Source: Candidatus Jordarchaeales archaeon
Lineage (GTDB): Archaea; Asgardarchaeota; Jordiarchaeia; Jordiarchaeales; Freyrarchaeaceae
Length of the DNA: 32,000 nt
Assembly: GCA_038858525.1 (NCBI GenBank)
Contig: JAWCFL010000002.1
Coordinates: forward strand, 89,987-121,986
Direction of reading: 5' to 3'
Shown here: positions 7,602-13,896 of the stretch, one piece after another
How the letters are laid out: each line of letters starts with the position of its first letter
Position numbering within the stretch: the first letter of the stretch is position 1
The notes under the pieces: model-generated
Told to the model about the DNA's origin: nothing
Databases searched by the model: none
Seen by the model: the letters and a program-made list of their open reading frames with translations, nothing else
Position numbers and translations under genes: made by a program

Positions 7602-8592
7602 AGTTGTCCTTGTGACTGGAGGAGCCGGCTTCATAGGGTCTCACCTGGTTGATTGGCTGATCAGAGACAATGATGTCGTGGTGCTCGACAACTTCTCAAG
7701 CGGCAAAATGAGCAACATTCAGCATCATCTGGGAAGTGATGGCTTTACGTTGATCAGGGGTGACATACTGGATAGGGAAGTTGTGAGGGAGGCTTTAAGG
7801 GATGTGGACGTCGTCATACACCAGGCGGCTGTTGTTGGCGTTAAAAAATACGTCGAAAATCCCTTGAATGTGTTGACAACAAACGTTTTCGGCACTCATA
7901 ACTTAATAGAGGAAAGCCTTAGGAGGGGAGTGGAAAGATTTGTTTTCGCTTCGACGAGTGAGGTCTATGGTAAGAGCGAAAAAATCCCTCTGAAGGAGAG
8001 CGGGGACAGGGTTCTTGGAGCGACGAACATAGCTAGGTGGTGTTACTCGACGTCCAAAGCGGTTGACGAGCACTTTCTCTTCGCCTACAACGAATCTTAC
8101 AGTTTTCCTATGGTTATATTACGCTACTTTAACGTGTATGGGCCGAGGCAGGAGACCAGCGATTACAGCGGGGTGATCCCGATCTTCATAAGAAGAATTT
8201 TGAGAGGAGAGCCGCCCCTGATACATGGAGACGGAGAGCAAACTAGGGCTTTCACCTACATTTCAGATGCTGTAGAGGCAACTGTGATAGCTGCCAGCAA
8301 GAGAGAAGCGGTAGGGCAAGCCTTCAACATAGGGAGCAGAGAGGAGGTTACGATAAATCAGCTTGCCAGAATGATCATAGAGCTCTCAGGCAATAACTCG
8401 ATCGAGCCTAAACATATATCCTACGAGGAGTTTTACGGTGAGAGTTACGAAGACATAAGGAGAAGGGTTCCGGACGTAGAAAAAGCTGAAAGGCTACTTG
8501 GATTTAAAGCGAAAACATCATTAAGGGACGGACTCAAAAAGACAATAGAATGGTATAGAAAACATTTAAACCGAAATGAACTCATGACTTGA
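7591..8592 (+). CDS. NAD-dependent nucleotide-sugar epimerase/dehydratase/decarboxylase (extended SDR)
   Basis: TGGAGFIGSH, STSEVYG, catalytic YxxxK (RWCYSTSK), RYFNVYGP. Overlaps the upstream gene by 11 nt. Confidence 0.87.
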   Translation: MKGKVVLVTGGAGFIGSHLVDWLIRDNDVVVLDNFSSGKMSNIQHHLGSDGFTLIRGDILDREVVREALRDVDVVIHQAAVVGVKKYVENPLNVLTTNVFGTHNLIEESLRRGVERFVFASTSEVYGKSEKIPLKESGDRVLGATNIARWCYSTSKAVDEHFLFAYNESYSFPMVILRYFNVYGPRQETSDYSGVIPIFIRRILRGEPPLIHGDGEQTRAFTYISDAVEATVIAASKREAVGQAFNIGSREEVTINQLARMIIELSGNNSIEPKHISYEEFYGESYEDIRRRVPDVEKAERLLGFKAKTSLRDGLKKTIEWYRKHLNRNELMT

Positions 8593-11635: not shown

Positions 11636-12961
11636 GTGTCCGAGCAACGAAGGCCTTCTATTGGAGGTTTATTTATGGATGTGCTTGAGAAAGTTTTTTC
11701 CAAGATAGGGCTGGAGTTCGACGCGGAAATAGGAGCATATGTTCACGTAAAGACGAACATACCTCTCACAGTTCATTATGATGGAGAGAGCGAAGAGCTG
11801 GTTCTACTTGACCAAACTAAGCTTCCATTTGAAGTTACAGTTTGGAAAACAAAGGACTGGAGAGAAGCTGGAAACCCAGGAATAAAAGGAATGATAGTTC
11901 GAGGAAGCCAGGCTATAGGTTGTGCCGCCGGCTACGCAATGTTACTTGCAGCAAACAGCTTCAGAAACCTTAAAGAAGAAAAATTCATGGAAAAGCTTAA
12001 CGAGGCAGCGTTATTCCTGAATTCTACGAGGCCAACAGCTTCTCCTCTAAAATGGGCTGTAGAACTTTGCATAAAAGCAGCACAGAACGCTATTCGGAGC
12101 GGAGGCGTCGAAGAAGCCGTTGAAGCTATCAGAGAGACTGCAGACTACGTGCTTGCCTCCGACTTGATCATGAACTGGTACCTAAGGCAGGAGGGGAAAC
12201 CTCTCATAGAGGACGGCGACGTAATAATGACTCACTGCAATGGCGGAAGCCTTTCCTCGAGTTTTGGGGGACACGCCCTAGGAATGATAGAAGAAGCGTA
12301 CGTTGAGGGAAAAGAACTAATAGTTGTCTCCAAGGAGACCAGACCCAGAAGCCAAGGCTTCAAGCTTACGACGTGGGAGCTTAACAGGGCAGGTGTGCCG
12401 GTGGTGATCATAACAGACAACATGATCTCCTCAGCAATAGAGCGCTTCGGAGTCTCGAAAGTTATACTTGGAGTGGACAGGATTGCAAGAGACGGCTCAG
12501 TAGCTAACAAAATAGGCTCGGCCGACATAGCGCGCATTGCAACACTATACGGAAACATAGACTTCTACTATGCTACATCCTACAGCACCATAGACCTGAA
12601 AACAAGCGAAGGCAGAAGCATCCCTATAGAGGAAAGAAGCATAGACGAAATAACGTACCCATATATCCTTGAAGCAAAAGACAAAAAGGAAAAGGGGATA
12701 ATTTCGAGTAAAAGCCTAGAAGAATGGCCGCCCCAGAAAGTCATCGTCCAAGGAAAACCCGGGAGAGGGCAGATAATGATATATAACCCCGCCTTCGACG
12801 TCACGCCTCCGAAACTAATAGACTTAATCATAACGGACATAGGGATCTTCGCTCCTCAACAGATAAGAACACTAACAGAGGAAAAAATAAATCGGATCGT
12901 GAGGGAGCGACTAGAAAAACAAGGGGTGACAATGCCCAAGTACATATATGTGTGGAGCTGA
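11636..12961 (+). CDS. mtnA: Methylthioribose-1-phosphate isomerase-like protein (MtnA / eIF-2B alpha family), divergent
   Basis: LDQTKLP, MIVRG, TRPTA, THCN, ETRP-x2-QG-x2-LTxWEL, DRI, ANKIG, NPAFDVTP. Starts immediately after the HAD stop codon. Confidence 0.78.
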   Translation: MSEQRRPSIGGLFMDVLEKVFSKIGLEFDAEIGAYVHVKTNIPLTVHYDGESEELVLLDQTKLPFEVTVWKTKDWREAGNPGIKGMIVRGSQAIGCAAGYAMLLAANSFRNLKEEKFMEKLNEAALFLNSTRPTASPLKWAVELCIKAAQNAIRSGGVEEAVEAIRETADYVLASDLIMNWYLRQEGKPLIEDGDVIMTHCNGGSLSSSFGGHALGMIEEAYVEGKELIVVSKETRPRSQGFKLTTWELNRAGVPVVIITDNMISSAIERFGVSKVILGVDRIARDGSVANKIGSADIARIATLYGNIDFYYATSYSTIDLKTSEGRSIPIEERSIDEITYPYILEAKDKKEKGIISSKSLEEWPPQKVIVQGKPGRGQIMIYNPAFDVTPPKLIDLIITDIGIFAPQQIRTLTEEKINRIVRERLEKQGVTMPKYIYVWS

Positions 12962-12963
12962 GC

Positions 12964-12980
12964 GCAAAAACATTTATTAT
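12964..12980 (+). promoter_or_regulatory. BRE/TATA promoter of tRNA-Ser
   Basis: Purine-rich GCAAAAA followed by TTTATTAT about 30 nt upstream of the tRNA 5' end. Confidence 0.6.
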
Positions 12981-13010
12981 TCCTTCTCTGAAATAAGAAG
13001 GACTTGGTAA

Positions 13011-13173
13011 GCGGGGGTTGCCTAGTGGCTAGTTCCGGAGGAACCCATAAAAGGCGCTGGCCTGGAGTTTAAACCGCACCTGAAAGCCAGTGACCCGAAA
13101 AGGTGCATGACGCCGCGCGCCATCATGCGCTATCGGACGGGTCGCGTGGGTTCAAATCCCACCCCCCGCGCCA
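13011..13173 (+). tRNA. tRNA-Ser(GGA) with three introns: D-loop 13031-13050, canonical 37/38 13068-13084, variable arm 13101-13138
   Basis: Acceptor stem GCGGGGG/CCCCCGC, G73 and encoded CCA. Removing the three segments gives D-arm GCCU-AGUGGCUA-AGGC, anticodon arm CUGGC-CUGGAGA-GCCAG, variable arm GACCC-GAAA-GGGUC and T-arm GUGGG-UUCAAAU-CCCAC. Confidence 0.88.
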
Positions 13174-13281
13174 AACACAACGATTCCCCCCAAACGTTGT
13201 TTTATGTCCTTCCTCCAGGAAATTTAGAGGAAAGAGCCGAGTAAGGCTATGTTTTGTGTGAAAAAATAGCTTGCTTGTTTT

Positions 13282-13713
13282 TTATATGTCAAGGACGAAT
13301 ACTAAGCGAGTTTTATCTTTTTTAATGTCGATTTCCATTTCGTGATACGTTGCTGCTTTGACGTCAGTCTTTGACACGTGCTTCTTGTGATTGAACTTTT
13401 CACCCTTTGCTGTCGCCGTTAACCTGTAACGTCCATCTTTCTCTTTCTCTATTGCCTTAACTTTAACCTCGGAGAATACTAGGCCCTCAGCGTCTGTTAG
13501 GTAAATGAATTCTTCAAGCCAGTTGTAAAGGAGACTCTCTAGGTCTTCTCCTTCAACAGTTATGCTCCTTTCTACTTTAGGTTCGATCCTTGAGGTGTCC
13601 GTCATTAATTCGTAGAGTGCTTTAGCTGCCTCTTCGAAGGCTTCTTCGATGGTTTCCCCTTTTGCTTCTATTTTAGCATCAGCGGTGTGCTCGAGAAACC
13701 TAAAGCTGCCCAT
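13282..13713 (-). CDS. Archease (activator of the RtcB tRNA ligase)
   Basis: FRFLEHTAD, LLYNWLEEFIY, VKAATYH, FVLDI. ATG at 13713. Confidence 0.93.
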   Translation of the reverse strand: MGSFRFLEHTADAKIEAKGETIEEAFEEAAKALYELMTDTSRIEPKVERSITVEGEDLESLLYNWLEEFIYLTDAEGLVFSEVKVKAIEKEKDGRYRLTATAKGEKFNHKKHVSKTDVKAATYHEMEIDIKKDKTRLVFVLDI

Positions 13714-13896
13714 AGTTAACACCTCACTCCAGTTTTTATCATAAGTGAAAGAAAAGCTTTCCTGAGTTTTAGAGAAGCATTTCTTAGAGTTTCGAGGAAG
13801 CCATGTGAAAGATCCGAGGGTGTTCTCTGTAATACTAAGCTTCAAAATGTTGGGGGTGAAGGATGACTCGAGAAAGGTCTGGAGGATGAAGCTTGG

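Follow-up and report, generated by a model that had tools for sequence, protein, structure and literature searches.

Analysis of a 32-kb window of an Asgard archaeal genome (the whole stretch of DNA considered here, 32,000 nt) confirmed, on comparative sequence grounds, that positions 13011-13173 on the plus strand are a real serine tRNA gene in which four exons are separated by three small introns. It is probable that this is a single tRNA-Ser(GGA) gene carrying three EndA-type introns, the transcript of which would be spliced by EndA and RtcB/Archease to 88 nt. Cuts were placed according to the archaeal rule, between bases 2 and 3 of the 3-nt bulge that lies 3' of a strand of the 4-bp helix, and excision of the three segments of 20, 17 and 38 nt (Table 1), exactly as a preliminary description of the locus had set them out, leaves an 88-nt sequence with an encoded CCA end that ARAGORN accepts as tRNA-Ser(GGA) with a standard cloverleaf. 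The spliced molecule, as drawn by ARAGORN, has acceptor and D stems of 7 and 4 bp, the latter with G18-G19; its anticodon loop reads C-U-GGA-G-A, its T loop UUCAAAU, and its discriminator is G73. Its variable arm is a 5-bp stem with a 4-nt loop (GACCC-GAAA-GGGUC), and the universal tertiary nucleotides are all present (U8, A14, G18-G19, U33, purine 37, G53-U54-U55-C56, A58 and C61).

Table 1. Features of the tRNA-Ser(GGA) locus, in positions of the window.
Feature	Coordinates	Strand	Content	Basis or remark
Candidate promoter	12966..12981	+	Purine-rich BRE-like run and TATA box (TTTATTA, 12973-12979)	About 32-38 nt upstream of tRNA position 1
Exon 1	13011..13030	+	Acceptor 5' strand, U8-U9, D stem 5' strand, D loop to G18-G19-C-U	Invariant in five genomes; ARAGORN cloverleaf
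Intron 1	13031..13050	+	20 nt, D loop, just before A21	BHB, orthologues
Exon 2	13051..13067	+	A21, D stem 3' strand, G26, anticodon stem 5' strand, loop C-U-GGA-G37	Invariant in five genomes
Intron 2	13068..13084	+	17 nt, canonical 37/38 position	Relaxed BHB, orthologues
Exon 3	13085..13100	+	A38, anticodon stem 3' strand, U44, variable stem GACCC, loop GAAA	ARAGORN, alignment
Intron 3	13101..13138	+	38 nt, between last loop nucleotide and variable stem 3' strand	BHB, orthologues
Exon 4	13139..13173	+	GGGUC, G47-C48, T arm, acceptor 3' strand, G73, CCA (13171-13173)	ARAGORN, alignment

The decisive support for the predicted gene is the comparative pattern, not the BHB motifs. A permissive scan for such motifs (three to four central pairs plus any short flanking helix) over about 200 nt of the locus and its orthologues returned hundreds of chance matches, and BHB geometry was therefore set aside as evidence; that loose geometry of this kind is common by chance is also stated in the accessible part of a 2026 preprint (10.64898/2026.10.13.758758). 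Whole-genome searches provided orthologues from three other species of the same genus (G001, G002 and G003) and from a second genus of the same family (G004), to be set beside the genome of this locus (G000) and a published complete Freyarchaeia genome of the same order (G006). Among the four genus members, 83 of 88 exon columns are invariant, as against 20 of 75 intron columns (7/20 in the D-loop intron, 4/17 in the 37/38 intron and 9/38 in the variable-arm intron) and 5 of 40 flank columns. The inserts vary in length without disturbing the exon frame, and five orthologues spliced at homologous sites each yield an 88-nt tRNA-Ser(GGA) according to ARAGORN. In each relative the orthologue of this locus is the sole GGA-type match.

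The comparison extends to the Freyarchaeia genome, in which our match ends at the same position, 1482542, as a published gene. The published tRNA table gives tRNA-Ser(GGA) at 1482398-1482542, called GGA by tRNAscan-SE, with two introns (PMC11291895); the sequence found there, 1391-1535 of the extracted stretch L014, is indeed this gene. Removing these two introns leaves 107 nt, which ARAGORN rejects, and removing in addition a 19-nt D-loop insert leaves an 88-nt tRNA-Ser(GGA) that it accepts. Because the third excision is needed to arrive at an 88-nt tRNA, the Freyarchaeia gene has three introns, one of them unannotated: a 19-nt D-loop insert, a 26-nt anticodon-stem intron and a 12-nt intron at 37/38. 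Its variable arm is plain (GAUCC-GUAA-GGAUC).

Upstream of the gene, the 16-mer AAAAACATTTATTATT recurs without change in all four members of the genus and with hardly any change in the sister genus, against a flank that otherwise diverges. From archaeal promoter architecture we infer that it is a candidate promoter, and conservation of this BRE/TATA element argues for an expressed gene. The DNA runs containing this locus are hot-spring metagenomes. The one metatranscriptome found to contain part of the stretch (run X12) is available as assembled contigs only; examined together with three DNA runs, it contributed one contig of the unspliced type, spanning about 12881-13126 and representing a strain variant. 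This contig also documents a polymorphism in the population, since the related strain carries a 6-nt insertion (AGGAAT) at 13043 within the D-loop intron, with unchanged exons. No exon joints were found among the X12 contigs, which cannot show absence. The thin RNA record and the incompleteness of the assembly are what could be said for a decaying or silent pseudogene, the working tRNA-Ser(GGA) then being encoded in the unassembled 7% of the genome. We judge this highly improbable, as neither exons nor promoter have given way across the four species and the sister genus, in contrast to the diverging flanks and introns, there is no flaw in the cloverleaf, which has every universal nucleotide in place, and each relative offers the orthologue as its only GGA-type match. 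Another intact tRNA-Ser(GGA), which the preliminary description had named as a finding that would count against the locus, was looked for and not found in the 92.7%-complete assembly. The locus is thus very probably the single tRNA-Ser(GGA) gene of this genome, with a small chance of a second copy at that completeness.

Of the three introns, the one in the D loop has a complete BHB motif. Its central helix, GUGG (13025-28) with CCAU (13045-48), forms 4/4 pairs flanked by CUA and AAA bulges, the features first noted for it, and a 5-bp inner helix (GUUCC/GGAAC) is stacked directly on it. An unconstrained MFE fold of the whole precursor recovers the same motif. The site is occupied in all five genomes of the family by an intron of 17-26 nt, and the 3' strand of the central helix varies between CCAU, CCGC and CCAC through one-sided changes that preserve pairing. 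At the canonical position 37/38, CUGG and CCUG form a central helix that stacks on the anticodon stem; it has 3/4 pairs and the U-U mismatch that had been pointed out earlier, and this BHB is of the relaxed class. The intron measures 13-17 nt in the orthologues of the genus and the second genus.

In all five genomes, A38 is preceded by an xGAA run with which the 37/38 intron ends (window 13079-13085); the run is CGAA in G001 and UGAA in the others. Owing to this run, a wrong excision at the site always yields another serine anticodon, UGA or CGA, and the run is thereby a trap for intron-aware tRNA finders. Here, the alternative would be to excise 13064-13080, 17 nt at position 33/34, so as to obtain the loop C-U-UGA-A-A and a UGA in place of a GGA anticodon. 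ARAGORN accepts the product as tRNA-Ser(UGA), and the equivalent excision in G001, carried out by hand, gives CGA. The boundaries 13064-13080 nevertheless lack a BHB (2/4 central pairs and no stacked helix, by hand), and the xGAA run is explained by the canonical BHB, in which its G pairs with C32 and its AA forms the bulge. A separate tRNA-Ser(UGA) gene is found on contig C21, and the Freyarchaeia orthologue was published as GGA by tRNAscan-SE (PMC11291895). We rejected this excision, and a UGA anticodon for the gene is extremely improbable.

The intron at the tip of the variable arm is less regular. Its central helix, CCGA (13095-98) with UCGG (13133-36), forms 4/4 pairs with AAA and ACG bulges, and its removal restores GACCC-GAAA-GGGUC; to this extent the earlier account of it stands. 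The motif is relaxed, not textbook, however: the 9-bp inner hairpin is offset by one unpaired A (A13132, opposite the 5' bulge), and the outer helix stacks only with a 4-nt 3' bulge. The CCGA/UCGG junction is the best-scoring BHB of the variable region in G000 and G001, with 4/4 pairs in both, and in G001 it is canonical, a 7-bp inner helix stacking directly. It is the top motif in G002 too, with 3/4 central pairs. In G003 a 1-nt deletion has removed most of the central helix (1/4 pairs by hand) and the best motif is found about 2 nt away. Across the four-sequence alignment of the variable arm, 87% of cells pair at the given register as against 19-44% when the partner is slid, and compensatory changes occur at three pairs, one in the variable stem (A-U to G-C, in G003) and two in the inner hairpin; no covariation was seen in the central helix in this four-sequence alignment. 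Central helix and variable stem compete for two C residues, and the MFE fold favours the full stem over CCGA/UCGG. A C/D-box guide within the 38-nt intron was considered by eye and dismissed, as the intron is too short and has neither C nor D boxes.

The 3' splice site of this intron sits within a run of three G, and its position is for that reason not fixed by geometry alone. The exact bonds are less certain than those of the other two introns, the junction being uncertain by about 2 nt. The same gene and mechanism might operate with the variable-arm cut displaced by 1-2 nt, leaving a slightly longer mature arm, such as one of 6 bp with a 4-nt loop. Apart from the looseness introduced by the three-G run, such a shift draws on other junctions, in which the flanking helices are longer and 3/4 central pairs form, giving stable arms in G000 and G001, and on the displaced best motif of G003. 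It is unlikely, given that in G000 and G001 only the proposed junction has 4/4 central pairs and that this junction produces a 17-nt variable region, as found in the G004 and Freyarchaeia genes, which lack this intron.

Seryl-tRNA synthetase reads the length and orientation of the variable arm, and this property counts against a more radical alternative, namely that the 38-nt segment is retained in the mature tRNA. The gene would then have two introns only and a giant variable region of 52 nt, built from a stem, an internal loop and the 9-bp hairpin. The MFE fold of the precursor draws exactly such a continuous extended arm, and the hairpin is maintained with compensatory changes in four species. 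We consider retention very unlikely all the same. In the sister genus and the family relatives the tRNA is near-identical except that its arm is an ordinary one of 14 nt, and the insert drifts in sequence and length like the other two introns, with 9/38 columns invariant. Moreover, a bulge-flanked 4-bp helix is found at the boundaries that restore an ordinary arm in three of the four species, and the other serine tRNAs of the genome carry plain arms. An excised variable-arm intron, with its junction where Table 1 places it, remains our preferred reading.

The three introns differ in their distribution. The D-loop and 37/38 introns occur in the Freyarchaeia orthologue as well (19 nt at the same D-loop site and 12 nt at 37/38), and they are, as far as these sequences indicate, old and common across the order. 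The variable-arm intron is present in all four genus members (G000-G003), at 29-38 nt, and absent from the sister genus G004 and from Freyarchaeia, which have a plain arm of 5 bp and 4 nt. Since the arm is plain in both outgroups, the intron was most simply gained in the ancestor of this genus, and the two introns shared with Freyarchaeia predate the order. When each intron, boundaries included, was used as a BLAST query against the genome, only chance matches of 12-14 nt came back and no copies elsewhere; for none of the three introns is there a sign of transposition, and an origin by transposition or copying was rejected.

Class II variable-arm inserts may recur in this genome. Two tRNA-Leu genes (A73), one on contig C1 at 58834-58970 (+) and one of about 151 nt on contig C11 (reverse-complement position 8262), have 31 and 29 nt, respectively, between the anticodon stem and the T stem, compared with the usual 13-17; in both, excisions of 13-17 nt with 4/4 central pairs yield ordinary arms.

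Splicing of three such introns requires an enzyme that tolerates non-canonical sites, and the genome encodes a plausible one. It has two full-length EndA paralogues, encoded in the regions of contig C3 81835-82089 and contig C43 5978-6235. The one designated paralogue 1 is closest to the catalytic subunits of the (alpha-beta)2 enzymes of Aeropyrum and Pyrobaculum. This paralogue aligns without gaps over the Crenarchaea-specific loop, keeping the equivalent of Lys44 and replacing Arg46 by Lys, and the context of its catalytic Y/H/K residues is conserved. In Aeropyrum, the loop confers cleavage of D-loop and relaxed-motif introns (PMC3241643). The EndA pair is hence a predicted broad-specificity enzyme able to cut non-canonical sites. 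One RtcB gene is present, and a gene for Archease (PF01951, E 1e-48) lies directly downstream of the tRNA gene on the opposite strand (13282-13845, minus). Archease is a cofactor of the RtcB tRNA ligase; its adjacency to the tRNA gene may be coincidental.

Taken together, we propose that transcription from the putative BRE/TATA promoter would give a transcript with a 163-nt precursor body carrying three BHB introns. A heteromeric EndA, to which the loop lysine on one paralogue may lend broad specificity, would cut within the 3-nt bulges flanking each 4-bp central helix, and RtcB with Archease would ligate the four exons into the 88-nt tRNA. In the precursor, the central helix of the variable-arm intron would borrow two C residues from the variable stem, so that the full 5-bp stem, a serine identity element, would form only after excision.

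How such a gene is perceived by annotation tools is a separate matter. ARAGORN called no tRNA in the unspliced 32-kb window and none on the unspliced locus with its intron option, and the Rfam tRNA model did not detect the unspliced gene either, which bears out the earlier suspicion that standard scanners might miss it. In the whole genome (2.09 Mb, 92.7% complete), ARAGORN with the intron option reported 11 tRNAs and the Rfam model 8, of which 5 scored above the family cut-off; nearly the whole tRNA set of this genome is undetected by standard scanners. The other serine and the leucine genes that we recovered, Ser(GCU), Ser(UGA) and two Leu genes, are all multiply interrupted. tRNA-Ser(GCU), on contig C37 at 13237-13404 (-), has three inserts (D loop, 37/38 and T loop), and tRNA-Ser(UGA), at reverse-complement position 1781 of contig C21 (126 nt), is interrupted by a D-loop insert and by an anticodon-stem intron; the variable arm is plain in both genes. 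Pattern scans of the genome found no tRNA-Ser(CGA), which may be more disrupted or unassembled. As standard tools miss most of its tRNAs, automated annotations of this lineage will look tRNA-poor, and the gene described here, the only tRNA of the genome for UCC/UCU codons, is among those they overlook.

The only mildly new element of the locus is the extra-arm intron, which is confined to this genus. It adds a well-resolved case to the intron-saturated tRNA genes of Asgard archaea, one in which the loop of a class II variable-arm hairpin harbours a non-canonical intron, and the gain can be placed on one branch, that of the genus. Existing knowledge of the cleavage and ligation steps for such introns is not altered by this case. 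It is tempting to go further and to regard the variable-arm intron as a recent, datable gain that makes splicing a compulsory checkpoint before charging and offers a natural case of BHB-intron origin, a view that we hold to be rather unlikely. If it were true, the identity element read by seryl-tRNA synthetase would form only post-splicing, which would create the checkpoint, and the intron would be a clean natural case for asking how new BHB introns arise, clean because the genome contains no donor copy.

The novelty of an intron at this position depends on which literature it is held against. A review from 2015 knew of no translocatable intron or split gene in class II tRNAs (PMC4390854), in agreement with the rarity that had been assumed for an intron in the class II variable-arm loop. 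That assumption is weakened by the 2026 preprint, which, in its accessible part, already counts 'variable-region' insertions as a class and refers to insertions in class II variable arms, which its figure omits (10.64898/2026.10.13.758758). Apart from this undrawn category, we found no explicit BHB intron in a class II variable-arm loop in the accessible literature.

The systems that most resemble this one are those of Freyarchaeia, Thermoproteales and Aeropyrum pernix. Three-intron tRNA genes were first catalogued in Thermoproteales (PMC4033280, PMC4390854), and the preliminary description held that they are known mainly from there; this did not hold up, as multi-intron genes have been published as the rule in the Asgard group to which the host belongs (PMC11291895; 10.64898/2026.10.13.758758). 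The multi-intron genes of Thermoproteales are alike in having up to three BHB introns at non-canonical sites and a broad-specificity (alpha-beta)2 EndA with the Crenarchaea-specific loop. They belong to a different phylum, however, and in contrast to that literature it is here a class II tRNA that bears two non-canonical introns. Aeropyrum pernix provides an experimental parallel in a D-loop BHB intron that is cleaved by a loop-bearing EndA (PMC3241643). 'Variable arm' introns of its tRNA-Lys have been confirmed by cDNA (PMC3241643, PMC4307357), but these lie in the short, 4-5-nt variable region of class I tRNAs and not in a class II hairpin loop.

The host itself is a member of the Asgard order that holds Freyarchaeia (G006 is placed in the same GTDB order), not of Thermoproteales, and its family is probably the one named Jordiarchaeaceae in the 2026 preprint. 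In Freyarchaeia and Atabeyarchaeia, introns occur in 92-95% of tRNA genes, up to four in each (PMC11291895), and the accessible part of the 2026 preprint gives a clade average of 2.0-2.4 intervening sequences per tRNA gene and notes that scanners miss D-arm inserts in particular (10.64898/2026.10.13.758758). Kinship at the level of the order, the small number of scanner-detected tRNAs and the multiply interrupted Ser and Leu genes all place the present genome within the heavily interrupted tRNA pattern of these Asgard archaea (Jordiarchaeia), and three introns per tRNA gene are ordinary in this lineage. The likeness to Freyarchaeia, from the same order and with two to four BHB-type introns per gene (PMC11291895; Goswami et al. 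2026 preprint), extends to D-arm inserts missed by scanners, to two EndA paralogues and to the D-loop and 37/38 inserts of the orthologue. The Freyarchaeia orthologue differs in carrying an anticodon-stem intron instead of the variable-arm intron that distinguishes the gene described here.
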